This document shows positions 1 to 12,854 of a stretch of DNA of 12,854 nt, one piece after another. Under the pieces are notes generated by a model. That model had not been told where the DNA came from and made no database searches. It saw only the letters and a list, made by a program, of their open reading frames with translations. Source of the stretch: a virus; IMG/VR virus record IMGVR_UViG_3300032331_003080, positions 1 through 12,854 of that record, one strand, 5' to 3'. The position numbers and the translations under genes are program-made. How positions within the stretch are numbered: position 1 is the first letter of the stretch; every line of letters starts with the position of its first letter.

Positions 1-179
1 AAGTGGTACACCTTGTCGTTGGGACGCACACGATCATTCCAACGACGGATCATGGCTTCATCCATCTCATCAGGATCAGTCCATGGACGCAATTTCACTT
101 CAGGATCGTCTGGGTGTGTGAACTTGCATACACCAGCGTGTCCAAAGTGTGTGTCACTGACTAAAAATACTGCTGGCAT
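1..179 (-). CDS. metallophosphoesterase (calcineurin-like), N-terminal 59 codons; continues past window start
   Basis: Below the ORF-track length cut-off. Hand translation from ATG 179..177: MPAVFLVSDTHFGHAGVCKFTHPDDPEVKLRPWTDPDEMDEAMIRRWNDRVRPNDKVYH. SDTHFGH matches phosphoesterase motif I. AAGGAG (191..186) lies 6 nt upstream of the ATG. Confidence 0.7.
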   Translation of the reverse strand, partial: MPAVFLVSDTHFGHAGVCKFTHPDDPEVKLRPWTDPDEMDEAMIRRWNDRVRPNDKVYH

Positions 180-189
180 ATCTTGCTCC

Positions 190-408
190 TTATACTTGTT
201 TTTTCTTCTTCACTCGTCCAATGCGATCAGCCTTGTTCCAATCATATGCAATGCCATCTGGGCATACGCCATTGCTCACTGCATCAACACCAAAGCGTCC
301 GCATATTTCAAAATCTTTTCCGTGGATCACCACAAAGGCATCCAGGGTTTTGGCATGAGTCATAGCGTCTGCTAGTGTGGTAAATTCTTGTTGTTCTATT
401 TTGTACAT
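190..408 (-). CDS. hypothetical 72-aa protein; candidate leaderless mRNA
   Basis: ORF track gives 190..414. The first ATG (414..412) abuts the -10 hexamer. The second ATG (408..406) begins 7 nt after the -10. No Shine-Dalgarno upstream. No recognisable family. Confidence 0.5.
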   Translation of the reverse strand: MYKIEQQEFTTLADAMTHAKTLDAFVVIHGKDFEICGRFGVDAVSNGVCPDGIAYDWNKADRIGRVKKKKQV

Positions 409-414
409 TTCCAT

Positions 415-443
415 ATTATAGCATTTTGGAAATATTTGGTCAA
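415..443 (-). promoter_or_regulatory. sigma70-type promoter P1 (class A): TTGACC-17 nt-TGcTATAAT
   Basis: Minus strand: -35 TTGACC at 443..438, -10 TATAAT at 420..415, 17-nt spacer, TGc extended -10 at 423..421. Belongs to a conserved block of about 37 nt shared with P7, P8 and P9. Confidence 0.7.
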
Positions 444-446
444 GTA

Positions 447-956
447 CTACTTATTACTTACTTCTTGCCAGGTATGATCGCCCATGTATCTTACCTGCAT
501 TAAGTACTGGTAATCTTCAGGAATGCCAGTAGACCAATCGGTTGGACCGTTATGTACTAGCAGTGTCTTTTCATGTCTTTTGTGCTGAACCAGCCAATAG
601 CATTTGCCCATTACAAGTTGAAAATTGTATTCTGCGGCATACACCGCATCAGTCACGTCAAGTCTGCGTTTGATATCTTGAGCTTGTTTTTCTAATACTG
701 CTACCAACTCCATGATACGATCATATTCTTGCTGGGCATACATCCTAGCATGATTGATCATTAGGTCTTTTTGTTGTTCGACTGGAACTAGATCAAACTT
801 GGGACCCGATGTGCTGGTAGCATATGGTGTTACATTGCGATTAAAAAAATGTACTAAGGTGTTGCCAGTAGTGACATCAAAACTATCTCGACCCTTGGCG
901 CTGTTTGATTGCTCAGAATCCCGCATGGTCCTTGTGACGTCGACGAGGTTCAACAT
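447..956 (-). CDS. hypothetical protein (about 160-169 aa)
   Basis: Long ORF, last gene of the P2 operon. Start is uncertain: ATG 956 has no SD and overlaps the omega-like gene by 44 nt; ATG 926 has AAGGA only 2-3 nt upstream. No family assigned with confidence. Confidence 0.65.
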   Translation of the reverse strand: MLNLVDVTRTMRDSEQSNSAKGRDSFDVTTGNTLVHFFNRNVTPYATSTSGPKFDLVPVEQQKDLMINHARMYAQQEYDRIMELVAVLEKQAQDIKRRLDVTDAVYAAEYNFQLVMGKCYWLVQHKRHEKTLLVHNGPTDWSTGIPEDYQYLMQVRYMGDHTWQEVSNK

Positions 957-1179
957 CTAGAGTCTTAGTAAGATATTCGCGACCAGTTTTTCCCTCTTCA
1001 ATTTCCTTGAGAGTGGTCAACATAACACCATGTTTGCAATTCACACGTGGACGATCACCACGGCTGATTTCTCTTGCTCTACGACTAGCAATCAAGATTA
1101 AATCGTATCTATTGCCCACAGCCTTGACTGCGTTTTGGCTAGTTAATCCTGCATATTCTTCATGTTCTAAATCAGTCAT
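913..1179 (-). CDS. rpoZ: RNA polymerase omega subunit (RpoZ)-like protein, 88 aa
   Basis: SQNAVKAVGNRYDLILIASRRAREI...TTLKEIEEG aligns with E. coli omega [25 protein letters not shown]...IALREIEEG (recalled from memory). AAAGGA lies 5 nt upstream of ATG 1179. There is an 8-nt overlap (ATGACTGA) with the upstream gene. Confidence 0.8.
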   Translation of the reverse strand: MTDLEHEEYAGLTSQNAVKAVGNRYDLILIASRRAREISRGDRPRVNCKHGVMLTTLKEIEEGKTGREYLTKTLDVEPRRRHKDHAGF

Positions 1180-1465
1180 CTTGGTCCTTTGTTGTTAATC
1201 CGTTTGAGTGTTTGTCACGCAACTGTTCTAAATCTTGGAACAGCCGTTTTTCTTGTGCTGTTAATCGATCCTTGTGCGTCTTGCGTGGATTACCGCACAA
1301 GTAACAGGCCGGATTACCACAGTCCATTGCACGATGCTTGGCATAACGATGTGGCGTCTTGATTTGAGCACCATGAGCCTGGGCAATTTTTACTTGCCTG
1401 GATATGGCCACATCCTTTTTATGCCTGCGTTTTGAATTTAGGTATCTGGCTAAATCGTTACTCAC
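1172..1465 (-). CDS. small basic Cys-containing protein (97 aa), possible zinc-binding
   Basis: GTG start at 1465..1463 with AAGGA 5 nt upstream. Lys/Arg/His-rich, contains CGNPACYLCGNP. First gene after promoter P2 and translationally coupled to the omega-like gene. Confidence 0.6.
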   Translation of the reverse strand: MSNDLARYLNSKRRHKKDVAISRQVKIAQAHGAQIKTPHRYAKHRAMDCGNPACYLCGNPRKTHKDRLTAQEKRLFQDLEQLRDKHSNGLTTKDQDD

Positions 1466-1488
1466 AGTGATCCTTTGTGTTGTTCAAC

Positions 1489-1517
1489 AGTATACACTCT
1501 ATACAGTACAATGTCAA
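1489..1517 (-). promoter_or_regulatory. sigma70-type promoter P2: TTGACA-17 nt-TATACT
   Basis: -35 TTGACA at 1517..1512, which contains the TGA stop of the hldD-like gene. -10 TATACT at 1494..1489. 17-nt spacer. Confidence 0.55.
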
Positions 1518-2278
1518 CCGTTTAGAGCTTGATACGTTCGAGTCATATCAGCACATGTGTACATTTGGTAACTGTTTTTTAAATTCTCAGGCATGGGTAT
1601 CTCGTCAATAGGCACACCAAATTGTTCGGCTACTTGTCGAAAACTTCGAGTTTTACCAGTTCCGATATTGAATATACCACTAACAGGCCTTGTGAGAAAT
1701 CTCAAGTGCATGGCCACAACATCTTGTACAGGAACAAAATCTCTAAGATAATTTTCACTACCTTCAAACACCCGTATTCTACCTGTTTCTTGTGCTTGTT
1801 TTGCAAATTGATGATAAGGACTTGCCTGTGTACCTTTGTGATCTTCTCCGGGACCGTACACATTGAAATATCTAAAACCTTGTACCGTGTTACCACCTTG
1901 GTGTCTAGTATGATGCCGCTCAAACAAATACTTGCTCCAGGCATAGGGTGTGCAAGGATCGGGCGGAGCATCTTCGTTAAAAGTACTAACCAACCCATAT
2001 ACACTGGCTGAACTAGAGTATTGTAAATTGACCCCAAATCGTTTACAGTCATCAAACAGTACGACACTAAAATCATAGTTTTGAGTAAACACTCGGTCCA
2101 CATCACGTTCGGTAGTTGAACTGATTGCACCCATGTGTATGACCCAGTCGTAGTCTATCACTCCTGGACACGGTCCGTCCGCCCATTCAAATGTATCAAC
2201 CTCATGTTCCATTCCGTTAAGAGCCTGTAACATATTGCTACCAATAAATCCTTGATGGCCTGTTAGTAATATTTTCAT
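1514..2278 (-). CDS. hldD: ADP-L-glycero-D-manno-heptose 6-epimerase-like SDR (short form, 254 aa)
   Basis: N-terminal GxxGxxG ([12 protein letters not shown]). [37 protein letters not shown] and [14 protein letters not shown] match E. coli HldD/RfaD blocks [37 protein letters not shown] and SGIFNLGTGRAESF (recalled). ATGA overlap with the cupin gene. Confidence 0.88.
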   Translation of the reverse strand: [254 protein letters not shown]

Positions 2279-2631
2279 TTTTGACTGTCTCCCGGTAACA
2301 CACGATAGTTGTCTTCTACTGAGTCCGGGGTCGACACTTCAATGATAGTGCCCTCTTCTAAACATATCAGTTGATGCGGTTGCAATGGTCTATTTCTCCA
2401 GGTAGTGCCCGGTTTAAGTATTGCATCATGCTGGCTGGCATCATTGGTTTCAATGAATACTACCTTGAACAAACCATCCAATACATACCATGATTCATCC
2501 TTCTCAGCATGGAAGTGCATGCTGAATCGAGCACCGGTATTGAATTTCATAAGTTTGCCACAGTACTTGTCGTTAGTGGCCCAAATCAATTCACTACCCC
2601 ATCCCTTTTCTACATATCCTTCTAATCTCAT
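2275..2631 (-). CDS. cupin-fold protein, type II phosphomannose-isomerase-like
   Basis: KGWGSELIWATNDKYCGKLMKFNTGARFSMHFHAEKDESWYVLDG fits the PMI/GMP type II cupin pattern (WG..E.....YxxK.l.v..G..lS.q.H..r.E.w.V..G). ATGA overlaps on both sides. Confidence 0.75.
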   Translation of the reverse strand: MRLEGYVEKGWGSELIWATNDKYCGKLMKFNTGARFSMHFHAEKDESWYVLDGLFKVVFIETNDASQHDAILKPGTTWRNRPLQPHQLICLEEGTIIEVSTPDSVEDNYRVLPGDSQK

Positions 2632-3386
2632 CGGATTTCCTCTAACGCAGGTGCATACACACCAAAGTGTTGTACAGTGACCGCACTGGCTCGGATTGCA
2701 AATTCTATTGCAGATTTCATACGTTTGGTCACCAGGTATTGATAGGCCAGTGCTGCCAAAAACGTGTCTCCGGCACCGGTCACATCTGAAACTTCTACGG
2801 TAACACCTGGATATTGATGTTCTGCACCATCTGAATAGTATACAGCACCATCACCGCCTTGTGTCACGATCAAATCAGTACAGCCACTGGTGATACGACT
2901 GTGTTCAAGTGCATTGATTTTTACAATGCATCTATCTAGTCTTGCTAGATCAGTTTTTTTGGTATCCACAAATACAGGACCAGAAAAATTCTGTTGTATT
3001 TGTTCTAGAACTTCATAGGTCACTGTGCCTTTGTTGTAGTCGCTCACAACCACGGCATCATACTCCTCAAAGATTTCGTTGAATACTACAGCAGGCTCAG
3101 ATTCAGCATCTGCGTCTATTCGCACTATGTGTTGTTTGCTACGCTGATCAATCAGTCTTGTTTTTACAGATGTATTACCGGTAATAACACCAACTGCACA
3201 GCCTAATCGTTCAAGGTTGGCTCTAACATTGGCAGCCATGCCGTGACGTTGTTCTTCATGGCTGACTTGGAAAATAGGAACAGGTGCTTCGGGACTGAGT
3301 CGATCCACTGTGCCGTAACGGTATATGTCCAGGCAGGTGTCACCGATTACTAATACTTTGAATTTTTTCTGTGGTTGAGAATCCAT
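2628..3386 (-). CDS. hldA: D-glycero-beta-D-manno-heptose-7-phosphate kinase-like (PfkB family; HldE domain I-like)
   Basis: KVLVIGDTCLDIY..G.VDRLSPEAPVPIF is the HldE/RfaE kinase-domain N-terminus. DVTGAGDTF is the PfkB signature. Shorter (252 aa) than the E. coli kinase domain. Confidence 0.82.
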   Translation of the reverse strand: MDSQPQKKFKVLVIGDTCLDIYRYGTVDRLSPEAPVPIFQVSHEEQRHGMAANVRANLERLGCAVGVITGNTSVKTRLIDQRSKQHIVRIDADAESEPAVVFNEIFEEYDAVVVSDYNKGTVTYEVLEQIQQNFSGPVFVDTKKTDLARLDRCIVKINALEHSRITSGCTDLIVTQGGDGAVYYSDGAEHQYPGVTVEVSDVTGAGDTFLAALAYQYLVTKRMKSAIEFAIRASAVTVQHFGVYAPALEEIR

Positions 3387-3732
3387 CTATTCTTTCAAAA
3401 AATACAATGCTTGAGCAAACTTCTGATCCCACAATAGCACGATCGCGATAGTCTGATCCTTTGACCATTATAGCACATTCTGCAACGATGTCAACAAGTT
3501 CCAGATCAGAATCAAATATCCTAACCTCATCTACCGAGCGTAGATTACTCAAGAGTTCTTGCCGTTCTGCTTGTGTATTTACAGGACGGCTCACGCCCTT
3601 CAATTCTTTTACTCGTCGATCAGAGTCAATGGCAACCACAAGATGGTCTCCTAGACTCCTGGCATACGTCAACAATTCTAGGTGTCCGGAATGTAAGATA
3701 TCAAATGTGCCGTTGACTATGATTCGTTTCAT
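3340..3732 (-). CDS. hldC: D-glycero-beta-D-manno-heptose-1-phosphate adenylyltransferase-like (HldE domain II-like cytidylyltransferase fold)
   Basis: NGTFDILHSGHLELLTYARSLGDHLVVAIDSDRRVKELKGVSRPVN...VKGSDY...GFSTTEKI parallels E. coli HldE domain II [46 protein letters not shown]...VKGGDY...GCSTTNII (recalled). The HxGH motif is present. Confidence 0.85.
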   Translation of the reverse strand: MKRIIVNGTFDILHSGHLELLTYARSLGDHLVVAIDSDRRVKELKGVSRPVNTQAERQELLSNLRSVDEVRIFDSDLELVDIVAECAIMVKGSDYRDRAIVGSEVCSSIVFFERIDGFSTTEKIQSISNR

Positions 3733-3860
3733 TAGATCTCTTCGTAGTCAGCTTTGAATCCACCACACTCAGGGCAAGGAAAGTCCTCAGGAAGATCTTC
3801 CCATTTGCCTTCTGTTTCTTCATCGTGTACATGACCACAAATTACGCATACGTGTTCCAT
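3732..3860 (-). CDS. rubredoxin-like protein, 42 aa (missed by ORF track)
   Basis: Hand translation: MEHVCVICGHVHDEETEGKWEDLPEDFPCPECGGFKADYEEI. Contains CxxCG...CPxCG. GGAGG lies 7 nt upstream. TAATG overlaps at both ends (3862..3858 and 3734..3730). Confidence 0.8.
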   Translation of the reverse strand: MEHVCVICGHVHDEETEGKWEDLPEDFPCPECGGFKADYEEI

Positions 3861-4309
3861 TATAGTGCCTCCAACTTTTGTTTGTAAAGATTTGCGTGAT
3901 GTTGCTCTACTCGTTGTAGTGCGGCAAAACGCTTTTCTGCTTTGGCCAACACAGCTCGGAACTGTTCAGCATGTTCGCGGCTTTCGTCAATTTGGTGCTG
4001 TGCTTCTCGAATAGCAGCCTCGTTGCCTTCGTTGTGCGCGGCGTTTTTCATGCGTGGATACATGTAAGTGAACTCTTCAGTTTCGCCCTCAATGGCTTTT
4101 TCCAAACATTCTCGAGTGGTTGGCTTGCCAACAAGCAATTCCAAATGTCCCCAGGCATGTTTGAGTTCTTGATCTGCTGTGTGTTCAAAGTGTTGGGCAA
4201 CATCTTCGTAACCTTCTTCGCGAGCAATACGTGCGAAGTAACGATATTTGATGTGAGCTTGTGACTCCCCAGCAAGTGCGCTTTCTAAATTTTTAATTGT
4301 AATTGACAT
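3860..4309 (-). CDS. rubrerythrin-type diiron (ferritin-like) protein lacking the fused rubredoxin domain
   Basis: LAGESQAHIKYRYF, EHTADQELKHA, IEGETEEFTYMYP and ESREHAEQF give two E...ExxH diiron motifs typical of rubrerythrin. AAGGAG lies 5 nt upstream of ATG 4309. Confidence 0.85.
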   Translation of the reverse strand: MSITIKNLESALAGESQAHIKYRYFARIAREEGYEDVAQHFEHTADQELKHAWGHLELLVGKPTTRECLEKAIEGETEEFTYMYPRMKNAAHNEGNEAAIREAQHQIDESREHAEQFRAVLAKAEKRFAALQRVEQHHANLYKQKLEAL

Positions 4310-4333
4310 ACATTCTCCTTATTAAGTAGTACT

Positions 4334-4363
4334 ATTATATATTATAGTAACAGCCTAAGTCAA
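4334..4363 (-). promoter_or_regulatory. sigma70-type promoter P3: TTGACT-18 nt-TATAAT
   Basis: -35 TTGACT at 4363..4358, -10 TATAAT at 4339..4334. A second TATAAT at 4346..4341 is too close to the -35. The leader AGTACTACTTAATAAGGAGAATGT runs to ATG 4309. Confidence 0.55.
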
Positions 4364-4408
4364 CGGGTTTTACCATTGTATTTTTTAATGATAGTAATAG
4401 ATTTTGCC

Positions 4409-4488
4409 TGGTACCCCTGCTTGGATTCGAACCAAGACCATGTACTCCCTTTTGAGGAGAGTGACTTTACCAATTTGTCTACAGGGGC
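4409..4488 (-). tRNA. tRNA with anticodon CAA (Leu by anticodon), atypical short variable region, CCA encoded
   Basis: Hand fold: acceptor GCCCCTG/CAGGGGT (G1:U72 wobble), D-arm GAC/GTC, anticodon arm CTCTC-CTCAAAA-GGGAG, 8-nt variable region, T-arm CTTGG-TTCGAAT-CCAAG, discriminator A, CCA. Confidence 0.65.
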
Positions 4489-4657
4489 AATAAATATTGT
4501 ATGAAGAACGATCCAGGATCAGTAGCACCGTTGTATAGAGAATTTTCTACAGAGCCCTATGAACCCCAGGTTCACGCTACCACTTGTTGTGTATTTACAT
4601 TAGATCCGTTGTTTATTGCCGCAGATTTAAAATTTCAACTTACTCCGTTATTGAACG

Positions 4658-4912
4658 TTAATCATCCCGAGATACTTGCCGTTCTCTGACCTTCATTCCA
4701 AACCAAGTGCCAACAAATGCACCTGCCAGGGCCGGGATCAAGGCCCAATGGTCAGCAGTATAATTGATAACTGCTATACTAGCAGTAAATGTCACAACCA
4801 TGCTCCAAAAGCTGGCGTGCCAGGGTCTATCATTCTGAATCGATTTTACAAAATACACGTAAATCAAATCAGTAAAGAATACTGCAAAAAATGTTACTGT
4901 GTATTCTAACAT
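4658..4912 (-). CDS. small membrane protein, about 3 predicted TM segments with charged C-terminus
   Basis: Hydrophobic stretches YTVTFFAVFFTDLIYVYFV, FWSMVVTFTASIAVINY and WALIPALAGAFVGTWFG. Tail is KVRERQVSRDD. Start is directly adjacent to the upstream stop (TAAATG). Confidence 0.6.
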   Translation of the reverse strand: MLEYTVTFFAVFFTDLIYVYFVKSIQNDRPWHASFWSMVVTFTASIAVINYTADHWALIPALAGAFVGTWFGMKVRERQVSRDD

Positions 4913-5143
4913 TTATTTTTTCTTTTCCAGTGGGGGTTCTTTGGTCTTGTCAAGTTCATGTGGCTCGGCAAATCTAGATTGGTTTCCCCAGGCTGCCCAA
5001 CTATCCTCAGTAAACAGTCGCACAGGTTTCCAAAAACGTACAATAATATTGTTAACCACAACAATACCGATTACAATCGAAATCAATGCTATCATTGTCA
5101 AAATGCTACCAGCTAGAAACGTTGCGGCGTGATCCATATCCAT
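4913..5143 (-). CDS. small single-pass membrane protein (76 aa)
   Basis: One TM segment (FLAGSILTMIALISIVIGIVVVNNIIV) and a Lys-rich C-terminus. AAGGAA lies 7 nt upstream of ATG 5143. Immediately downstream of tRNA-fMet. Confidence 0.6.
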   Translation of the reverse strand: MDMDHAATFLAGSILTMIALISIVIGIVVVNNIIVRFWKPVRLFTEDSWAAWGNQSRFAEPHELDKTKEPPLEKKK

Positions 5144-5164
5144 GAGTGTGTTCCTTATATGAGT

Positions 5165-5239
5165 TGGTTGCGGGGGAAGGATTCGAACCTCCGTCTTTCG
5201 GGTTATGAGCCCGATAGTCTACCACTGACGTACCCCGCG
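5165..5239 (-). tRNA. initiator tRNA-fMet (anticodon CAU), CCA encoded
   Basis: Sequence CGCGGGG...TCGGGCTCATAACCCGA...CCCCGCAACCA. It has the C1xA72 mismatch and three consecutive G:C pairs closing the anticodon stem, as in E. coli tRNA-fMet (recalled). T-arm GGAGG-TTCGAAT-CCTTC. Confidence 0.85.
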
Positions 5240-5243
5240 TTGT

Positions 5244-5272
5244 ATTATAACTTATTTACAGCTGATTGTCAA
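5244..5272 (-). promoter_or_regulatory. sigma70-type promoter P4 (class B, perfect consensus): TTGACA-17 nt-TATAAT
   Basis: -35 at 5272..5267, -10 at 5249..5244. The tRNA-fMet 5' end (5239) is the 5th nt after the -10. The TAA stop of the upstream CDS (5258..5256) lies inside the spacer. Confidence 0.72.
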
Positions 5273-5966
5273 TGTTTTCTAAAACATAGTCAGCAAATGC
5301 TTGATGTGCTGGTTCAAAAAAATGTCCCCAATCAGTATGGGGAAACTTTTGTTCTAAGCACCATTCGCAAAATTTAGTAGTACCAATTGGCCAATATCCA
5401 ACGTCGATAGTGCCTGGTATGCCCGCAAAACTATCAATGTTTATGATTTTTATATTTTGATTTTTTGCCAACATATTAACTGCAAGAATGTTTTTGAGTT
5501 TGTTTAATCTACCGCGCTGACCATCGCTTTCGTATGTAATCCAATATTTAGAAAAGTCAGCGTATGCATCAGCATCGGATATCATGCCACCAAGACGCTG
5601 TCCTTCTAGCATGACATGATTGCGAGTCACATTATTTAAAACAACATTTCCGTGAGTTACTGCCAACCAACGTTGTTGTTTTTCATACCATATTTCGGTT
5701 CTAGAATCGCCAGTCCAACAAGCAATCACAATGTCATCTTGATCTAGTTTTTGGCTTTCAAATATTCTAAACATAGCATCATTACTGCCTCCAGATATGG
5801 CGTGATTGCGGACTTCATATCCTAGGGCTTGTGCTATTTTAACTGGATAACTTTTGGTATATCCATACTCTTCTAAATTTTGTGATGATGGTAAATTCAA
5901 GCCTGGCTCTTTGTATATTTCGGCACCAGCCGCATGACTACACCCTAATATCAATGCTTTTTTCAT
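5256..5966 (-). CDS. SGNH/GDSL-like hydrolase-fold protein (putative)
   Basis: N-terminal LILGCSHAAG (block I-like, Ser present), ISGGSNDAMF (block III GxND-like), C-terminal EPAHQAF (His block). Distant paralog of 9342..10118. Confidence 0.6.
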   Translation of the reverse strand: MKKALILGCSHAAGAEIYKEPGLNLPSSQNLEEYGYTKSYPVKIAQALGYEVRNHAISGGSNDAMFRIFESQKLDQDDIVIACWTGDSRTEIWYEKQQRWLAVTHGNVVLNNVTRNHVMLEGQRLGGMISDADAYADFSKYWITYESDGQRGRLNKLKNILAVNMLAKNQNIKIINIDSFAGIPGTIDVGYWPIGTTKFCEWCLEQKFPHTDWGHFFEPAHQAFADYVLENIDNQL

Positions 5967-5971
5967 AATTT

Positions 5972-6060
5972 TGGCGGAAAGTATAGGAATCGAACCTATG
6001 CACCGTTATTCACAGTGATGGATTAGCAATCCATTGCCTTAACCACTCGGCCAACTTTCC
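5972..6060 (-). tRNA. tRNA-Ser (anticodon GCU), class II with long variable arm, CCA encoded
   Basis: Hand fold: GGAAAGT/ACTTTCC acceptor, ATGGA-TTGCTAA-TCCAT anticodon arm, variable arm CACTG-TGAATAA-CGGTG, T-arm ATAGG-TTCGATT-CCTAT, discriminator G. Confidence 0.9.
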
Positions 6061-6098
6061 TTTGTTTTCCAGTGTTAGATATTTAACTAAGTATTTTT

Positions 6099-6989
6099 AT
6101 GGTGCCAATATTCTTATTAACTTACAATGAACAGGATTCTTTTGTAGAAATTTACAACGACCAATTTGTACGAACTCACTTCGGCCCCAACAACATACAT
6201 TTTTATGTGTTAGACAATGGCAAGCAACCAAAAATCGAATCTTGGTGTCAACGCCACGGATACACATACTATGCCAGTGAATACAACATTGGCAGTTCGG
6301 GTGGCTACAATTGGATTTTTAAAACAGCATTTCGACTTAGGTTACAAGCGGCTGTATTAATGCAGGCCGATGTTGAAATTACGTCGGCCTGGCCGCTTTT
6401 GTTTACCTATCAACTTACTAGAGCGTTTGGAACGACACATTTTATTACTTGGCCACAAACTTTTCATCACAGTGATTATAGTGCAGAAATATCTTATCAT
6501 GATCTTAAATCAAATTTACCAAATTTAGGAAACCTTGTGGGATTTGATCCGATTATGATGTACCACAAAAATTGTTATTTTGATGAAAATTACGTGGTCA
6601 CACACTGTGATGATTTAGAATTTTTGTATCATATGCGTACTAAAAATATGAATGCTGTCAATGCAATTTCGCTATTGCCTGGTGCAGTAGAAACAGCTCA
6701 ACGATTTGTATTGCCTGGCACCGAAACTCGAACTCATTCACACGTGATAACATTTAATAATGAAGAAATAAGAATACATCATGTCAGCCAATTTTATGAA
6801 AGTCATGATCCTTGGTTAGCAGTTAACAAACCTTATTACGATCTTATGTGGGAACAATCACAATGCCAAACAAGAGCACCGTACGATCCTGCTCGGTGGC
6901 AACAGTTTGGATACCCTGCTTATCCAGTGCAACACGAACTTGATCGGTTTTTTAAACAATATCCAAAATTAACACATGGAGCGGAATAG
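6099..6989 (+). CDS. glycosyltransferase family 2-like protein
   Basis: This is the only convincing plus-strand gene. VPIFLLTYNE (GT2 N-terminal xxTYN motif), VLDNGKQ, YNIGSSGGYNWIFKTA (N.G.aGG.N block), QADVE (DxD-like). No SD upstream. The last 13 nt overlap tRNA-Gly on the opposite strand. Confidence 0.65.
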   Translation: MVPIFLLTYNEQDSFVEIYNDQFVRTHFGPNNIHFYVLDNGKQPKIESWCQRHGYTYYASEYNIGSSGGYNWIFKTAFRLRLQAAVLMQADVEITSAWPLLFTYQLTRAFGTTHFITWPQTFHHSDYSAEISYHDLKSNLPNLGNLVGFDPIMMYHKNCYFDENYVVTHCDDLEFLYHMRTKNMNAVNAISLLPGAVETAQRFVLPGTETRTHSHVITFNNEEIRIHHVSQFYESHDPWLAVNKPYYDLMWEQSQCQTRAPYDPARWQQFGYPAYPVQHELDRFFKQYPKLTHGAE

Positions 6990-7050
6990 CGGAATCGAAC
7001 CGCTGACTTGAACTTGGAAGGATCTCGTTTTACCATTAAACTAATTCCGC
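6977..7050 (-). tRNA. tRNA-Gly (anticodon UCC), CCA encoded, imperfect anticodon stem
   Basis: GCGGAAT/ATTCCGC acceptor, D-arm GTTT-AATGGTA-AAAC, anticodon loop CTTCCAA, T-arm AGCGG-TTCGATT-CCGCT, discriminator U (Gly-like). The AGATC/GTTCA anticodon stem has AxA and UxU mismatches. Confidence 0.72.
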
Positions 7051-7052
7051 AT

Positions 7053-7361
7053 TTAAATTGTTTGCTTTTTAAATTCTTCCTCGGCTTTTTTGTGCAAGAC
7101 AAACCATCTATTATGAATTAAATTAGCATATTCATAATTGTAATCTAATTGTGCATAATCTATTAATTGTTTATACAAATTCTCACTCAAAGTAGGCGCA
7201 TAAAGTTCAACCAAATCAATTAAAATTCCGTTGATACTATTTGCTAGTGTTGTTACCTCAGCAAATCTCTGTTCACAAAGGTTAATAAACACTTGTTCGT
7301 TCACACCATTGAAGTCTGGATTGATTTTTTTTATATAACAAACTTGGTAAAAATTTATCAC
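7053..7361 (-). CDS. C-terminal portion of a frameshift-interrupted hypothetical gene
   Basis: ORF track 102 aa. The nominal start is GTG 7361 with a weak SD. It overlaps the upstream ORF only around the A8 run (7332..7325). See the frameshift finding. Confidence 0.5.
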   Translation of the reverse strand: MINFYQVCYIKKINPDFNGVNEQVFINLCEQRFAEVTTLANSINGILIDLVELYAPTLSENLYKQLIDYAQLDYNYEYANLIHNRWFVLHKKAEEEFKKQTI

Positions 7362-7656
7362 TACTTTCTATAAAAATATTTAATTCATTAAATTGAGCTA
7401 ATTTGTTTTGCCATTCAAAATCATGATCTGGGTGCATGAACATTATAAATCTTTTTAAATCATCTCTCCATATCCATTCATAATCCAACCAATTTGAATG
7501 TGTTCTTTTGAGTGGGTATATACTATTAAGAATATAATTTACTTTGTCTGTAATAGATTGAAAATTAAAAAAATTAAATTTTTCATCTATTAATAATAAC
7601 CATCTTAAGTGATTACCGCCGGCTCCCCAAGGAGCCCAAATTGTTAAATTACTCAT
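7282..7656 (-). CDS. N-terminal portion of a frameshift-interrupted hypothetical gene
   Basis: ATG 7656 with GGAG 5 nt upstream. Very AT-rich. The frame ends 14 codons after the A8 run. No family recognised. Confidence 0.6.
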   Translation of the reverse strand: MSNLTIWAPWGAGGNHLRWLLLIDEKFNFFNFQSITDKVNYILNSIYPLKRTHSNWLDYEWIWRDDLKRFIMFMHPDHDFEWQNKLAQFNELNIFIESSDKFLPSLLYKKNQSRLQWCERTSVY

Positions 7657-7691
7657 CTATGCTCCGAAAAACTTGGCGGTCCCAGGAAGAA

Positions 7692-8432
7692 TTAAACTCC
7701 CGCCGTGAAAGGGCGGCGTCCTGCCCAATATGTGGTTTTTAACCAAGTTTGGTAAATGTGGTCAGCCATGGCTTGATGCTGGATCAAATTTGGTTCAATC
7801 CCGTTCAAGATACCATCACGATCCTGCACACTTGCATATTGTTCTCTAGCCAAGGTCCATTTAGGATCTTCGTCCATAGCCCATTCACGGGCTTTGTCTG
7901 CATCCATCTCTATATGAAACTGCATGGCCAGATGTGGCCCGATAGCAAATGCTTGGTTAGCACAAGCGGCTGAACCAGCCAGGCGTGTGGCACCAGTGGG
8001 TATACTAAAAGTGTCGTAGTGCCACTGTATCACGGTAGAGGTAGGTGCGGAACCAAACCACTGTTGTGTTTCAGGAACATCCTCATATTCAATGGGTTGC
8101 CAACCTATTTCAGGTTGCGGTGATATTCCGATTGTGGCACCTAGTGCTCGAGCCATCAATTGCCCACCCAAACAATGTCCTATGACCGGACGATCCAATC
8201 GCATGGCTTGTAGTATTAAAATTTCTGCTTGGCGATTACTCAGCAAGGGATCATTAGCACTCATGCCACCACCCATCACAGCCAAGGCTGAGTAAGGTTC
8301 TATGCTGACAGGAAACTGTTGCCACAACCCTGCATTGCGTGTCTCATGCGGAATATCGTGTTGGCCCAACCAGGTCACAAGGTATGCAGGACGCTCGGGT
8401 GTTTGGTGTTGTAGTATTAAAACAGGTTTCAT
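7692..8432 (-). CDS. class I glutamine amidotransferase (GuaA-GATase-like stand-alone domain)
   Basis: VIGHCLGGQLMA (nucleophile-elbow Cys) and LAMQFHIEMD (His-Glu) match the GATase1 triad. Visibly higher GC than its neighbours. No SD before ATG 8432. Confidence 0.82.
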   Translation of the reverse strand: MKPVLILQHQTPERPAYLVTWLGQHDIPHETRNAGLWQQFPVSIEPYSALAVMGGGMSANDPLLSNRQAEILILQAMRLDRPVIGHCLGGQLMARALGATIGISPQPEIGWQPIEYEDVPETQQWFGSAPTSTVIQWHYDTFSIPTGATRLAGSAACANQAFAIGPHLAMQFHIEMDADKAREWAMDEDPKWTLAREQYASVQDRDGILNGIEPNLIQHQAMADHIYQTWLKTTYWAGRRPFTAGV

Positions 8433-8449
8433 TGGGATATTTAGTCAGT

Positions 8450-8469
8450 AGAAACCCGCCGAAGCGGGT
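8450..8469 (-). terminator. intrinsic terminator ending the ssrA transcript
   Basis: Minus strand ACCCGC-TTCG-GCGGGT followed by TTTCT. GC-rich stem with a UUCG tetraloop. Confidence 0.6.
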
Positions 8470-8512
8470 CCTGGTGATTTCTGTTACGAGGTATTTCCTA
8501 CCCTAGGCTACT

Positions 8513-8545
8513 TTACGCGGCCAATGCGAACTGTGAGTCGTTAGC
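8513..8545 (-). other. tmRNA tag reading frame: ANDSQFALAA + UAA
   Basis: GCT AAC GAC TCA CAG TTC GCA TTG GCC GCG TAA. The upstream context GCAAAAAAAGTAAAC resembles the E. coli GCAAAAAATAGTC context before the resume codon (recalled). An in-frame upstream GCA (8560) would give AKKVNANDSQFALAA. Confidence 0.7.
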
Positions 8546-8724
8546 GTTTACTTTTTTTGCTTGATTAACGGTCATCGCCTACCGTGTTGCCGTCGCTACT
8601 ATCTAGCTCAATCGATCCTGTGTCATCCCCACCTAAATATACTGTATACACTTAGGTGGAGATGCCGGGCACTGCCCCCGGGTCTTGAACTCCTTCGTTT
8701 TGAAGGGATTACAACAATATTTGT

Positions 8725-8753
8725 ATTATATATTTATTTGATCAACTTGTCAA
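8725..8753 (-). promoter_or_regulatory. sigma70-type promoter P5 (class B, perfect consensus): TTGACA-17 nt-TATAAT, drives ssrA
   Basis: -35 at 8753..8748, which contains the TGA stop of the upstream small CDS. -10 at 8730..8725. Predicted start near A8718. Confidence 0.75.
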
Positions 8754-8917
8754 CCACCACGTCCGGTAACCTTGCGCATGGGCTTACCACCAGGTGAGGG
8801 TGGTGCTTTGCGTTTGGCCGCTTTCTGTTGTGTCTTGCTTAGTTTGGCATCAGGTTGATGTATGCCTTGCTTTTTTGCAAGTGCCTCTTTTATCTCTTCT
8901 GTAAAGTTTTTGCTCAT
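8750..8917 (-). CDS. small basic protein, 55 aa
   Basis: ORF track 8750..8965 trimmed to ATG 8917, which has AGGAG 6 nt upstream. The longer form would overlap the tRNA at 8932..9007. Sequence: MSKNFTEEIKEALAKKQGIHQPDAKLSKTQQKAAKRKAPPSPGGKPMRKVTGRGG. Confidence 0.55.
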   Translation of the reverse strand: MSKNFTEEIKEALAKKQGIHQPDAKLSKTQQKAAKRKAPPSPGGKPMRKVTGRGG

Positions 8918-8931
8918 CGCGTACTCCTGGT

Positions 8932-9007
8932 TGGTGCCTTGGGAGGGAATCGACCCCCCAGTCAAAGGATTATGAGTCCTCTGCTTTGACCGTTAAGCTA
9001 CCAAGGC
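8932..9007 (-). tRNA. tRNA with anticodon CAU (elongator Met or Ile2/lysidine type), CCA encoded
   Basis: GCCTTGG/CCAAGGC acceptor, D-arm GCTT-AACGGTCA-AAGC, anticodon arm GAGGA-CTCATAA-TCCTT, T-arm GGGGG-GTCGATT-CCCTC (G instead of U at position 54), discriminator A. Confidence 0.8.
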
Positions 9008-9015
9008 CCATGTGT

Positions 9016-9044
9016 ATTATATAGTAATATTGTTGCTATGTCAA
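9016..9044 (-). promoter_or_regulatory. sigma70-type promoter P6 (class B, perfect consensus): TTGACA-17 nt-TATAAT
   Basis: -35 at 9044..9039, which contains the TGA stop of CDS 9041..9349. -10 at 9021..9016. The tRNA 5' end (9007) is the 9th nt after the -10. Confidence 0.75.
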
Positions 9045-9349
9045 GCGATTAACCACGTAGTACTACGTTTTAATTCAATGCTTTCTTTTCCATCGTATTC
9101 AGTGATGCGAAACTCTTCACCCTGTGGCACCCACTCAACTATTAGGTGTGGTAATGCGCCTAAAAAGATAGTGGGATATTTGAGTCGGATGTAGATTTCT
9201 AATTTTTCCATTTGCTCAGATTCAACATACTCCACAATAACAGGATCAAATACCAATTCGGGATATTTAGTATTCCAGGTATACCAGCCTGCACCAAACT
9301 CTGGGCTGTACACCACACCTACCTTGCCATCTTGTATTAGTTTATTCAT
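9041..9349 (-). CDS. hypothetical protein, 102 aa
   Basis: Clean ORF with an 8-nt overlap (ATGAATAA) with the upstream gene. No family recognised. Confidence 0.7.
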   Translation of the reverse strand: MNKLIQDGKVGVVYSPEFGAGWYTWNTKYPELVFDPVIVEYVESEQMEKLEIYIRLKYPTIFLGALPHLIVEWVPQGEEFRITEYDGKESIELKRSTTWLIA

Positions 9350-10118
9350 CTTCCATACTTAATAAATTTTCCCATTGAGCTTTGCGATCCCAATAAAACG
9401 GCACCCATTTTTCCTTGTCAACAAGTGTTTTCAAATTGATTAATCGAGTGTTATCTAATTTGAAAGGTAATTTATGTAATAAACATTCAACCAGCCAGTT
9501 AAGATGTACAGCAGGTGATGGTTGAACTTCAGTTTGTCTAATGTTATTGTATTTAGGTTGAGTACTGTACTCGCTCATGCCTGCCCACGGTTTGTGCCAT
9601 GCCCAATTTGCATCTGTTAGTGTATTTTTTTGTGCCAAAGACAAATACTCAGGAGAATACGTAAACATATAATAGTATTGAATATTATTATTGTTAAAGT
9701 AATTTTTTAATAACAACATATAATTATAAGTTCTCAAGTTGGCTTGAGTTTCTTCTATATAAAAATCGTGATAGTGTGCAACTTCGGATTGTGTGCTACT
9801 ACTACTCAACCACCAATTATTATCTCCCAACTTAACTGTATTTTGTGAATACACAGGATCTGTGTTAATAATTGTATTCCACCTGGCGGTGTTGATTAAT
9901 TTATCTAGTCGGCGAGGACTTGCCCATTGCATAATAAAAATTCCGTCAGTAGGTGTTTGTAATGCCGCATTAAGCAAAAACTCATTGCCTGCACCAATAC
10001 CAGCAGTGTTTACTACCTCAACTTTGGGATAAATTGCTTGTAATAATTGCGGCCACTCCGGCCATATATGCCCCATGGCATAGCCATCTCCAAATGTATA
10101 GATTTTTTTTATATCCAT
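9342..10118 (-). CDS. SGNH/GDSL-like fold protein, divergent paralog of 5256..5966 (nucleophile position is Gly)
   Basis: IYTFGDGYAMGH (block I-like with GDG instead of GDS), GIGAGNEF (block III-like), SPAVHLNW (His block). Low GC. No obvious SD. Confidence 0.6.
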   Translation of the reverse strand: MDIKKIYTFGDGYAMGHIWPEWPQLLQAIYPKVEVVNTAGIGAGNEFLLNAALQTPTDGIFIMQWASPRRLDKLINTARWNTIINTDPVYSQNTVKLGDNNWWLSSSSTQSEVAHYHDFYIEETQANLRTYNYMLLLKNYFNNNNIQYYYMFTYSPEYLSLAQKNTLTDANWAWHKPWAGMSEYSTQPKYNNIRQTEVQPSPAVHLNWLVECLLHKLPFKLDNTRLINLKTLVDKEKWVPFYWDRKAQWENLLSMEDE

Positions 10119-10152
10119 CTAGTGGGGTATTGTTCTGCTGGTACGGGCATGA

Positions 10153-10326
10153 TTAATATACCTCTTTAATAATTTCAAATTCAGTTTTGGGATATTTTTC
10201 TTTGAATTCTTCAGATTGCACAAATTTATTAAAATCTGTTGCAGTAAAGAATACCCTTTTGAAAACACTTTGCAATTTTCCCTTTGGGACTATTGTCAGA
10301 TAGACGCTTGTTGCTTTGCCTGCCAT
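10153..10326 (-). CDS. hypothetical small protein, 57 aa (missed by ORF track)
   Basis: Hand translation: MAGKATSVYLTIVPKGKLQSVFKRVFFTATDFNKFVQSEEFKEKYPKTEFEIIKEVY. AAGGA lies 6 nt upstream of ATG 10326. It fills an otherwise empty 230-nt gap. Confidence 0.6.
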   Translation of the reverse strand: MAGKATSVYLTIVPKGKLQSVFKRVFFTATDFNKFVQSEEFKEKYPKTEFEIIKEVY

Positions 10327-10347
10327 TGTGGTTCCTTTAGTTGGTGT

Positions 10348-10674
10348 TTAGTCTGCACGGCTCATCATGTATGCTTTAATGCCGAACTTTTCCAAAGTTT
10401 CGGCATAGGCACGGGCGCCAGTTTCTTTCACATCCATGCTTTGTGTAAAGCTACCACCGGGGTTCCACAAGTCCAAGCCACCTGAGTAAGATTTGCGGAA
10501 GCCCACAGTTTTAAGAGCACGACCTAATTTGGTACTGGCTTTGACAGGTACGTTGACCCAGGCAAAACCACAGTAGGCCATTTCGCCATGTTTGGCAACA
10601 AAGTCTGCTTCGGCTTTACGAGCGGCCTCTGTAGCAGTATTGTGAACGGATTCAATGTTTTCGAGTGCAATCAT
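10348..10674 (-). CDS. hypothetical protein, 108 aa
   Basis: The ORF-track N-terminus (to 10737) starts at the TTG of the -35 hexamer. The real start is taken as ATG 10674 with AAGGAG 6 nt upstream. Sequence begins MIALENIESVHNTATEAARKAEADFVAKHGEMAYCGFAWVNV... Confidence 0.7.
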   Translation of the reverse strand: MIALENIESVHNTATEAARKAEADFVAKHGEMAYCGFAWVNVPVKASTKLGRALKTVGFRKSYSGGLDLWNPGGSFTQSMDVKETGARAYAETLEKFGIKAYMMSRAD

Positions 10675-10704
10675 TCGGGGCTCCTTGTTTGTGTTTATGT
10701 CCAT

Positions 10705-10733
10705 ATTATAGCATTTTGGGAATAATCGGTCAA
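10705..10733 (-). promoter_or_regulatory. sigma70-type promoter P7 (class A): TTGACC-17 nt-TGcTATAAT
   Basis: -35 at 10733..10728, -10 at 10710..10705. It shares 25 consecutive identical nt with P8. Confidence 0.7.
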
Positions 10734-10737
10734 CCAA

Positions 10738-11088
10738 TTACTCACCGTACTCGTCAGACTCTGCGTAATCTTCTGATGCTTCGCAAAATATTTTCATCCA
10801 ATGTTTCTTGGGCAAGGCATGCAACAATTCAGGAGTCACATAACATGGATTTTTGAGTTCGTATGTTTCTCTAGCACGACGGGCTAACTTTTGTATTACT
10901 TTTTCATAAGTTTCAGCAACCACAGGGTCAGCCAACATGTCCACATATATTTTTTTCTTGCTCAGTTTGAACTTCTTGAGCATAACTGGCTCCCAAGTTT
11001 GATCATAGTCGCCGTATGCAATGTCCTTGCACACTTTCTGCAAACTTACTGGGGTTACCTTGATTGTGTTTTTTAAAGTTACTTGCAT
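10738..11088 (-). CDS. hypothetical protein, 116 aa, acidic C-terminal tail
   Basis: ORF track trimmed to ATG 11088, which has AGGAG 6 nt upstream. The track's start is the TTG of the P8 -35 hexamer. The tail is EASEDYAESDEYGE. Confidence 0.7.
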   Translation of the reverse strand: MQVTLKNTIKVTPVSLQKVCKDIAYGDYDQTWEPVMLKKFKLSKKKIYVDMLADPVVAETYEKVIQKLARRARETYELKNPCYVTPELLHALPKKHWMKIFCEASEDYAESDEYGE

Positions 11089-11119
11089 TCTGGCTCCTGT
11101 TTTGTTACTGTATGTCCAT

Positions 11120-11148
11120 ATTATAGCATTTTGGGAATTATTGGTCAA
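11120..11148 (-). promoter_or_regulatory. sigma70-type promoter P8 (class A): TTGACC-17 nt-TGcTATAAT
   Basis: -35 at 11148..11143, -10 at 11125..11120. The TAA stop of the GIY-YIG gene (11140..11138) lies in the spacer. Confidence 0.7.
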
Positions 11149-11470
11149 CCTTTTTGACCCGTATATCTGTGTTCAAAACAGGTGTATACTTTTGTATTAA
11201 TTCCCGCTCCAATTTGTGTGCCTGGGCTTTGCCACGTACAATGTCCACGATTGCAAAATTCACAGCCCGCTCGCCGTTTGTGCGAATTGCTTCGTACAAG
11301 TTCCAACTCTTGCTTTCAGTGCGACTGCGGTAGATGTGCTTGTTAACACGGCTCTGCAGGCTCATGTTAATAGTACGCTGGGTTTTAGCGGTAATACCAA
11401 TGTAGTACTCTTCCCCAATTTGGAGCATGTATACTATATGAGTGCGATCTGAACGTTTCTTTCTTATCAT
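11138..11470 (-). CDS. GIY-YIG nuclease catalytic domain only (110 aa); candidate leaderless mRNA
   Basis: [17 protein letters not shown] (GIY...YIG), R...H (RVNKH), [20 protein letters not shown] (conserved Glu and Asn) resemble the I-TevI/Seg catalytic domain. The only start upstream of the first beta-strand is ATG 11470, 7 nt after the P9 -10. Confidence 0.72.
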
Positions 11471-11476
11471 GTGTGT

Positions 11477-11505
11477 ATTATAGCATTTTGGGCATTTTTG
11501 GTCAA
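11477..11505 (-). promoter_or_regulatory. sigma70-type promoter P9 (class A): TTGACC-17 nt-TGcTATAAT
   Basis: -35 at 11505..11500, -10 at 11482..11477. Downstream sequence is ACACAC then ATG. Confidence 0.7.
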
Positions 11506-11536
11506 CCAAAAAATACTACTACAAAAGTACTACTTT

Positions 11537-11896
11537 TTATGTACGTTCAAGATAACGCAAAAAACGGCTCAAATCCCCATACATAGCATACATCATGGCT
11601 TGTTCACTTCCGAACAAATGCAACACAGGAGTTTTTCCCGGCTCAATATAATATGGACAATCCAATTTCCTGCTCAACACCAACAAGTCGCCCATGCGAA
11701 AAATTTTAGGAACTGCAAACCCATGCGAGGCAATACCGTATTTTCGAAGCATATCATATCCACGTTCAGTAAGTCTAAGTCCATCTTGTTTGGTAAAAAT
11801 CATCCACCAATCAACAAGAGCTTGTTCGTAGGTAAGGCGCTCTTCCGTAGGAAGAAATTCTAACAGTTTAAGAGTGATTTGTTTTTTACTTGACAT
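11537..11896 (-). CDS. hypothetical protein, 119 aa
   Basis: Clean ORF with an 11-nt overlap with the upstream gene. No family recognised. Confidence 0.7.
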   Translation of the reverse strand: MSSKKQITLKLLEFLPTEERLTYEQALVDWWMIFTKQDGLRLTERGYDMLRKYGIASHGFAVPKIFRMGDLLVLSRKLDCPYYIEPGKTPVLHLFGSEQAMMYAMYGDLSRFLRYLERT

Positions 11897-12182
11897 CGGG
11901 GTACACTTGAGCCCCTTGTGTCAAAAGCACGACTGTGAACTTGTCGGTCTTGAATTGTGTGTTGAGTTTACGTGCCAAGTTTTTGGCATGCCCGGGATTT
12001 GAAAAGCTGACCTTCTTGTACTTGGGTCCTGGGTACTGTGTCAGCATGTTAGATGTTTTGAGATTGATAGGCTTGTTGTCGTAAAACACCGCCCAAACAC
12101 CTTCAGAGGCCAATACTTGTTCGGTCTTGTAGGTTTGTTTGTTTGTGTGCTCGATTAATACATTAGGTTTTGGGCGGCTCAT
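11886..12182 (-). CDS. hypothetical protein, 98 aa
   Basis: ATG 12182 with GGAG 6 nt upstream. Lys-rich. No family recognised. Confidence 0.7.
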   Translation of the reverse strand: MSRPKPNVLIEHTNKQTYKTEQVLASEGVWAVFYDNKPINLKTSNMLTQYPGPKYKKVSFSNPGHAKNLARKLNTQFKTDKFTVVLLTQGAQVYPDVK

Positions 12183-12213
12183 CGTTATCTCCGTAGTTTA
12201 TTTATCTAATAAA

Positions 12214-12429
12214 CTAGGGGTTTTTGAAACCACCGCCACTCAATTCTACCGTAACAGTTTCTGTTTTGGATGCTGTTAATTGTGTACGTAATACTTCAAG
12301 AGTCAGCAGTAACTTAGTGATATCACTGTGTAAATCTTTAGCATCGCGCATGTTCATGATGAAGTCCCGTTGGCCACGTGCTTCATGTGCTTTGATACTA
12401 TCAACAAAACGATTTATATGCAGGCTCAT
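12214..12429 (-). CDS. hypothetical protein, 71 aa
   Basis: ATGA start/stop overlap with the MazG-like gene (12429..12426). Confidence 0.65.
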   Translation of the reverse strand: MSLHINRFVDSIKAHEARGQRDFIMNMRDAKDLHSDITKLLLTLEVLRTQLTASKTETVTVELSGGGFKNP

Positions 12430-12782: not shown

Positions 12783-12854
12783 ATTAATCTTGTACAAATA
12801 AATTGGATTGGCCACCCGCCTCTTCTCGTGACTGGAAAGGGCCTTGGTAAGCAT

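Follow-up and report, generated by a model that had tools for sequence, protein, structure and literature searches.

The window analysed here, the 12,854 nucleotides (nt) of IMG/VR virus record IMGVR_UViG_3300032331_003080 (positions 1 to 12,854), encodes on its minus strand an 88-amino-acid (aa) protein that is a homologue of omega (RpoZ/Rpb6), which is the smallest of the bacterial RNA polymerase subunits, and a member of the omega family by every test that we ran. That it is a phage-encoded omega homologue we regard as very nearly certain, and the gene is carried by a lineage of large (jumbo-type) freshwater phages in which it is widespread and, in the resources that we searched, so far undescribed. 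What we observe at this locus is a phage-borne omega homologue that is under selection and has an intact core, placed behind a strong early-type sigma-70 promoter in a region with host-type promoters. The best overall explanation, to which sequence comparisons lead us to give about an even chance, is that the phage omega would sit on the beta-prime subunit of the host polymerase and, most specifically, that the enzyme would there lose site 1 for the alarmone guanosine tetraphosphate (ppGpp).

The 88-aa protein is an omega homologue

An earlier reading of the window, made without database searches (the sequence-only reading), had assigned the 88-aa product to omega, and this assignment was borne out by curated profiles, by the predicted fold and by the residues kept in the core. 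The search against Pfam PF01192 (RNA_pol_Rpb6) was significant (E = 7.8e-12), with a score of 45.5 bits against a curated cut-off of 26, and the protein also passed the curated cut-off of NCBIfam TIGR00690 (rpoZ; 34.8 bits against 23.6). Its best sequence match in the PDB was E. coli omega (E = 6e-9), residues 10–81 aligning with E. coli residues 2–71. An AlphaFold2 (AF2) model built from 73 relatives had a predicted local distance difference test score (pLDDT) of 79 overall and of about 90 for residues 21–70. When this model was compared with the PDB using Foldseek, all 50 matches listed were omega chains of RNA polymerase complexes, spanning the E. coli, Vibrio, Pseudomonas, Caulobacter and mycobacterial enzymes and including the ppGpp complex 4jk1. 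The best match superposed 61 residues with a root-mean-square deviation (rmsd) of 1.7 Å and template modelling (TM) scores of 0.62/0.74, and the fold predicted for the phage protein agreed with that of bacterial omega at an rmsd of 1.5–1.9 Å over about 61 residues.

The motif correspondences with E. coli omega that the sequence-only reading had quoted were correct. The phage protein and E. coli RpoZ are of similar length and share the core AV..VGNRYDL.L.A..RAR...LKEIEEG, and A17, G22, N23, R24, D26, L27, L29, R34, E59, E61, G63 and L70 were invariant in 25 phage omegas together with E. coli omega. The window's omega consists of an acidic extension (residues 1–9), Gly11 in place of E. coli Arg3, a core (12–70) and a basic tail (71–88), and is about 41% identical to E. 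coli omega over the aligned core and 34% identical over the full-length alignment; the phage family as a whole showed 33–37% identity to the three bacterial omegas compared. The longer, acidic N-terminus described in the sequence-only reading reaches 8 residues beyond that of E. coli omega, with four of its first nine residues acidic, and the basic C-terminal tail that it described recurs in the family, where the median net charge is +4 against −4 for E. coli omega. The differences from bacterial omega thus lie in the extended N-terminus, in the loss of MAR (Arg to Gly), in a tail that is basic (..EPRRRHK..) rather than acidic, in the phage-family-specific motifs NRYDL and GK(V/T)GREYL, and in the setting of the gene, which stands behind a phage early-type promoter and outside a gmk–rpoZ–spoT operon.

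The gene belongs to phages and is maintained by selection

The window has contents typical of a phage, namely five tRNA genes, a GIY-YIG homing endonuclease, MazG and many small open reading frames (ORFs) on one strand. The exact omega protein was present on two lake-metagenome contigs, and a 91%-identical copy lay on a 71.5-kb IMG/VR viral contig, the AAA ATPase of which had its nearest cultured relatives among PA5oct-like Pseudomonas jumbo phages (50.6% identity), followed by Sinorhizobium phage Phosso and Agrobacterium phage Atu_ph07. A protein search with the window's omega returned 185 relatives at 49–93% identity, and a profile-guided scan of IMG/VR placed omega relatives on at least 442 viral contigs of up to 359 kb. 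All of the omega neighbourhoods that we read, including those on contigs of 264, 355 and 356 kb, were phage-like, with neighbours that included T4-type RNA ligase, NUMOD3 and HNH endonucleases, TerC, an AAA ATPase with DUF2201, radical SAM enzymes, a holin and a GH19 lysozyme. The gmk–rpoZ–spoT arrangement was absent from every phage-family omega locus read, and was found at the true bacterial loci L098 and L181. The phage content of the window, the viral contigs and the missing bacterial context together uphold the phage-encoded status that the sequence-only reading had claimed.

We searched for the signature VGNRYDL[IV]L among 185,579 bacterial and archaeal species (one genome each) and found it in only three omega genes. 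One, at locus L097, lies on a 1.8-kb contig (CALKUJ010000329.1) that was binned into a Polynucleobacter metagenome-assembled genome (MAG) and that carries a phage-type omega of the MAR class described below together with a DnaJ gene, in a synteny matching that of the phage locus L013; this contig is probably phage DNA placed in the wrong bin. The second belongs to a true gammaproteobacterial gmk–rpoZ–spoT locus (49% identity), and the third to a contig of an alphaproteobacterial MAG (38% identity). The bin of L097, along with TctC-type and Porin_4 genes on related phage contigs, gives a weak hint of a Burkholderiales host.

The ratio of nonsynonymous to synonymous substitution rates (dN/dS) of omega between the window and two relatives was 0.08–0.12, from which we conclude that the gene is kept by selection in phages. 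Among 50,697 GenBank phage records, megablast with the whole window gave no match, and tblastn with omega retrieved only bacterial contamination and no genuine phage record. The contaminants included contigs CAKLQH020000003.1 and CAKLQF020000004.1 of "Acinetobacter phage MD-2021a", which are bacterial DNA with pil genes and gmk–rpoZ–spoT, and the UNVERIFIED Campylobacter phages A11a and A18a (MG065691.1 and MG065686.1), the enterobacterial-type rpoZ of which scored identically to Salmonella rpoZ matches. PHROGs has no family for the omega protein, and no account of a phage-encoded omega came up in full-text literature searches; an "omega" match in a paper on large aquatic phages was rejected, as it referred to the program Clustal Omega.

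Omega is coupled to an upstream gene behind a sigma-70-type promoter

A sigma-70-type promoter (TTGACA-17 nt-TATACT; 1517..1489, minus strand) that matches the consensus at 11 of 12 positions drives two overlapping genes, and confirms the consensus-type promoter placed here by the sequence-only reading. About 24 nt beyond it, on the same strand, begins the gene for a 97-aa basic protein (1465..1172, GTG start), which contains CGNPACYLCGNP. The omega gene follows (1179..913, minus strand, ATG start; PF01192 and TIGR00690, RpoZ/Rpb6 fold, N-extended class as defined below), its ATG lying within the last codons of the 97-aa ORF, so that the two ORFs overlap by 8 nt (ATGACTGA; 1172–1179, minus strand), and an AAGGA Shine-Dalgarno motif precedes each start. 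The protein sequences, motifs and overlap quoted in the sequence-only reading were all present on the minus strand, and the translational coupling that it proposed agrees both with this overlap and with the same arrangement in about 60 related loci. Immediately 3′ of omega lies a DUF2452-family gene (956..447, minus strand; PF10504, E = 1.1e-7, 31.9 bits against a cut-off of 25), the true start of which is probably an internal ATG; in 37 related loci, a homologue was encoded on omega's strand, mostly as the next gene downstream.

Sigma-70 promoters that match the consensus at 11 or more of 12 positions numbered 11 across the window, against 0.41 expected from simulations; every one stood on the minus (coding) strand, and four were perfect (12/12). 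Further examples lie at 9044..9016, 8753..8725, 5272..5244 and 3494..3467, and two of the perfect promoters stand immediately upstream of two tRNA-Met genes. We also noted a 53-nt cassette present four times (395–447, 10685–10737, 11100–11152 and 11457–11509; 75–81% identity to the reference copy), which on the minus strand reads as an extended −10 promoter, TTGACC-17 nt-TG-c-TATAAT. The long ORF starts listed at these cassettes (MVD...) are probably artefacts, with the real starts further down, behind AAGGAG.

Two classes of phage omega differ at the segment that contacts ppGpp

To compare the N-termini, 200 distinct phage omega sequences were sorted by an N-terminal motif rule. Fifty-three of them, 66–80 aa long, start with MAR (or MSR, MPR, MAQ) like proteobacterial omegas (the MAR class), and 141, the window's omega included, carry a mildly acidic N-terminal extension of 9–20 residues (the N-extended class). 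NRYDL and GK(V/T)GREYL were common to both classes, as were basic C-terminal tails (median net charges of +4 and +3), with the tail motif D-V-E-P-R-R-R frequent in the N-extended class. A neighbour-joining tree was too poorly resolved to show whether the N-extended class forms one clade, the sequences being short and a few of them mis-sorted by the motif rule.

E. coli omega contributes its residues 2–5, alongside beta-prime R417 and K615, to the coordination of the ppGpp phosphates at site 1; a polymerase with an omega lacking residues 2–5 binds ppGpp with a Kd >100 µM, and the site is generally conserved across proteobacteria (PMC7676912). The N-terminal MAR has served as a marker of ppGpp binding by omega (PMC6416229). 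At the position of E. coli Arg3, we found Gly in 140 of the 141 N-extended omegas, within aligned segments that read ..EEYAGLTSQ.. in the window's omega and ..YEATLGLSNE.. in many others of this class. The window's counterpart of E. coli omega residues 2–5 (ARVT) is AGLT, which is no longer a free N-terminus. The protein therefore lacks the MAR-type proteobacterial features of site 1, MAR being absent and the corresponding segment not being N-terminal.

The surroundings of omega bear on the same question. A gene block is common to the related phages, in the order (97-aa gene)–omega–(DUF2452)–DSP-type phosphatase–AAA_33 kinase–...–HD_4–(T4-type RNA ligase 1). The HD_4 protein is a 178-aa stand-alone hydrolase domain of the SpoT/RelA type with an HDxxED motif (52.6 bits against a cut-off of 27.2), and its gene follows omega 2–4 kb further downstream in 15 phage loci, which include members of both classes (for example at 10128–10664 of L008). 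In bacteria, the omega gene adjoins spoT. That these phages have a SpoT-like hydrolase in the same early region as omega, and that the window carries a MazG-like pyrophosphohydrolase gene, may point toward alarmone control. As a separate observation, the DSP-type phosphatase, AAA_33 kinase and T4-type RNA ligase 1 beside HD_4 look like an RNA-repair set.

The 97-aa protein belongs to a large phage family and is not an obligate partner of omega

The 97-aa protein matched phrog_4499 (E = 1.3e-8), a family of unknown function, and its homologues numbered 2619 against 185 for omega, a family more than 10-fold larger. Its members follow the pattern R-S-x-R-R ... Q..IAK ... P-H-R..K-H-H-A-M-D-C-G-x-P-x-C-x-x-C-G-N-P-R-K ... 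T-x-Q-E, with a conserved H..C-x4-C-x2-C-G-N-P-R-K motif in which C49, G50, C54, C57, N59, P60 and R61 are nearly invariant. Because three nearly invariant Cys residues occur with His residues nearby, we predict that the protein binds zinc, and the sequence suggests a small basic zinc-binding protein, a probable zinc knuckle, that probably binds nucleic acid. Across 1.84 billion representative proteins, the family formed 297 clusters at 50% identity, all of them small stand-alone proteins, and none of these representatives offered an informative domain fusion. Nothing significant was found for the 97-aa protein in PDB sequence and profile searches or in Pfam scans of 83 members, where matches to Ribosomal_S14 (3 of 83 members, E = 0.016) and to a TRIM5 zinc finger (E = 7) were treated as noise; the AF2 model was unreliable (pLDDT 55).

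The sequence-only reading had joined the 97-aa protein and omega into a two-component module that modifies RNA polymerase. The overlap and coupling on which that proposal drew stood up, but consistent co-occurrence did not. The 97-aa gene lies directly upstream of omega in about 60 N-extended-class loci, in most of them with an overlap of 4–32 nt, and adjoins omega in none of 27 MAR-class loci. Among the 80 IMG/VR loci closest to the window's 97-aa copy, omega was directly downstream in 41, while 37 had no omega within 2.5 kb and instead had a peroxiredoxin, a phosphatase, a porin-like gene or another gene downstream. The family is also present in phiKZ-like Pseudomonas phages (for example PA7 gp120, 35% identity), in the records of which tblastn with omega found nothing. 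In L003, the window's nearest relative, omega itself comes right after this promoter and leader, with the 97-aa ORF cleanly missing. The point of joining (L003 900–1000 compared with window 1100–1600) falls in ACAAAGGAyCA..TGAsT..GATTTAG, a sequence found at both gene starts in the window, and short-homology recombination, whether as a deletion or as an insertion, could account for the difference. The family sizes, the phiKZ-like phages, the 37 of 80 loci and L003 lead us to conclude that the two genes are not an obligate pair. We read the 97-aa gene as an early gene that is common in this phage group, and omega as an accessory gene that in one lineage travels in its wake and borrows its promoter and ribosomes; a physical partnership of the two proteins is possible, though the data do not require one.

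How the phage omega might act on the host polymerase

We think it probable that the phage omega acts by occupying the omega site of the host polymerase. The phage region would be transcribed by the host sigma-70 holoenzyme, the phage omega would be made early, and it would bind host beta-prime at the site of host omega, either by exchange with the latter or by joining polymerase devoid of omega. Cellular polymerase includes a small omega-free fraction (PMC7676912) and omega can be supplied in trans (PMC7676912; PMC7700224), which makes its entry plausible. The polymerase of the infected cell would in this way gain N- and C-terminal omega tails specified by the phage. With an N-extended omega, it would no longer bind ppGpp at site 1, a loss predicted because the contacting segment has lost both its Arg and its free N-terminus, and phage transcription would be partly uncoupled from the host's stringent response. 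Phages are known both to be restricted by the stringent response and to counter it (PMC13483052). For the blunting of stringent control by N-extended omegas there is circumstantial support in the Gly of 140 of 141 sequences, the HD_4 gene nearby in 15 loci and the MazG-like gene in the window. That blunting ppGpp is the purpose of the phage omega seems to us possible but on the doubtful side. We advance only tentatively, and lean against, the fullest version, according to which a jumbo-phage omega would be swapped into the host core and its Arg-less, N-extended form would abolish site 1, so that initiation and elongation would escape the stringent response jointly with the SpoT-type hydrolase and MazG. 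As to elongation, a preprint also ties site 1 to ppGpp control of that step (PMC13192712).

Several considerations weigh against an omega that disarms site 1 of the host enzyme. In E. coli, site 1 alone has modest effects relative to the DksA-dependent site 2 (PMC7676912). The MAR motif is kept in 53 of the 200 phage omegas, and loss of ppGpp binding therefore cannot explain the retention of the whole family; since the MAR class keeps the motif, any family-wide benefit must be sought elsewhere, in the shared basic tail, in factor recruitment or in dosage. The N-terminal extension itself could be a by-product of the overlapping genes and not an adaptation. In addition, the explanation assumes that site 1 is conserved in the beta-prime of the host, and entry by exchange would need displacement of host omega from assembled polymerase. 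Finally, no polymerase gene was present in the neighbourhoods read, which on the 264–359 kb contigs covered 5–10 kb around omega, and genes for a phage beta/beta-prime may sit beyond that span.

Other roles for the phage omega

A first alternative, which we consider unlikely, is that omega serves as an adaptor, its N-terminal extension or basic C-terminal tail docking a phage regulator on the host polymerase, or the polymerase on phage DNA, with the 97-aa zinc-type protein as a candidate for the regulator. There is precedent in GafA, which activates the genes of the Rhodobacter capsulatus gene transfer agent (RcGTA) by binding omega directly (PMC9638019). The N-extended class is tied to an adjacent 97-aa gene (about 60 loci, against 0 of 27 for the MAR class), and its tails are conserved within the class, with the motifs Y-x-x-T-L-G-L and D-V-E-P-R-R-R and a tail dN/dS of 0.05 between close relatives. 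This association of class and partner may, however, merely reflect common descent of one phage lineage. Each gene is also found without the other, the 97-aa gene in phiKZ-like phages and in 37 of its 80 closest loci, and omega in L003, and an adaptor role predicts no partner for the MAR class.

It is also conceivable, but in our view quite unlikely, that the phage simply raises the level of omega by means of an auxiliary, "host-like" gene, keeping beta-prime folded and polymerase assembled during a long infection of a slow-growing host and leaving regulation unchanged. Some polymerase is without omega, the level of which falls about 2-fold in stationary phase (PMC7676912), and the N-terminus of the MAR class is like that of an ordinary omega. 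Nevertheless, no other core subunit gene was seen near omega, and the family stands well apart from bacterial omegas (33–37% identity to the three compared), has a signature nearly absent from bacterial genomes and possesses conserved tails of its own. This separation and these tails suggest specialisation rather than dosage.

We judge it very unlikely that the phage omega is a subunit of a multisubunit RNA polymerase encoded by the phage itself, in the manner of RPB6 in large eukaryotic DNA viruses. To our knowledge, jumbo-phage polymerases have no omega subunit. The idea draws on the relatives found on contigs of jumbo size (264–359 kb) and on the beta/beta-prime-like polymerases that some jumbo phages encode (PMC7598289), although we found no report of omega in these enzymes and the review names omega only in its reference list. 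Moreover, the window is full of consensus sigma-70 promoters, no polymerase gene was found in the 5–10 kb read around omega in any neighbourhood, the nearest isolates by AAA ATPase are PA5oct-like and not phiKZ-like, and omega has a core of proteobacterial type that shares 41% identity with E. coli across the fold. The last alternative is that the gene has no role in infection, being either a passenger lately captured from a host or bacterial DNA that assembly or binning wrongly assigned to a phage. It recalls the contaminating bacterial rpoZ that GenBank "phage" records do contain, but is effectively refuted by hundreds of divergent copies (49–93% identity) with conserved phage synteny in viral contigs, by a dN/dS of about 0.1, by the phage-type promoter and by the missing gmk and spoT flanks.

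Other genes in the window

The five tRNA genes, all on the minus strand, are dispersed and interleaved with protein genes: Leu-CAA (4409–4488), Met (5165–5239), Ser-GCT (5972–6060), Gly-TCC (6977–7050) and a second Met (8932–9007). Between 1514 and 3732 lies a sugar-nucleotide cluster consisting of an NAD-dependent epimerase, a cupin, a PfkB-type kinase and a cytidylyltransferase, which looks like a split RfaE/heptose-type pathway and which recurs beside omega on the 264-kb contig L008. It is followed by a rubrerythrin (149 aa) and rubredoxin (42 aa) gene pair (3732–4309); with the peroxiredoxin (AhpC) and CMD genes of related loci, this pair suggests an oxidative-stress theme. A class-I glutamine amidotransferase gene (7692–8432) has a local GC content of 0.45–0.47 compared with 0.33–0.43 around it, and may be a recent acquisition.

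Comparison with known systems and significance

Phages are known to reach the host RNA polymerase by way of sigma factors, inhibitors, covalent modification, antiterminators or a polymerase of their own. Among the small early phage proteins that act on the host enzyme are T4 AsiA, MotA, gp55 and gp33, T7 Gp2 and Gp5.7, Xp10 P7, and P23-45 gp39 and gp76, and we know of none of these that is a core-subunit homologue; our literature searches likewise found no phage copy of a core subunit of the host polymerase. The closest likeness to the predicted effect is the engineered E. coli omega lacking residues 2–5, in which the same ppGpp-phosphate segment is altered and the remaining omega is intact (PMC7676912). 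The phage change differs in being natural, in combining a substitution with an N-terminal cap instead of a deletion, and in having an effect on ppGpp that is predicted only. The Pfam family of omega also includes RPB6/RpoK of eukaryotes, archaea and large eukaryotic DNA viruses, among which there is a case of a virus-encoded copy; RPB6 is described as having an acidic, flexible N-terminal tail that recruits the p62 subunit of TFIIH (PMC8754651). Viral RPB6, however, serves a virus-encoded polymerase, whereas the evidence for the phage omega, the sequence of which is of the bacterial omega type, points to the host enzyme. In the Rhodobacter gene transfer agent, a phage-derived element also uses omega as a contact for transcription control (PMC9638019), but there the omega is the host's and the regulator the element's, whereas here omega itself is encoded by the phage.

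To supply a core subunit of the host polymerase from the phage genome would depart from these known routes. If the fullest version given above is true, a phage would for the first time be seen to exchange such a subunit rather than to bring an additional factor to the enzyme. What omega does is still a matter of debate, and phage variants with and without MAR and with new tails are potential natural separation-of-function alleles. Omega is also used as a bacterial marker gene in metagenomics, where hundreds of viral copies could bias counts. The finding links to current work on how the stringent response restricts phages and how phages counteract it, and suggests that phages have a means, undescribed to date, of retuning the transcription enzyme of their hosts.

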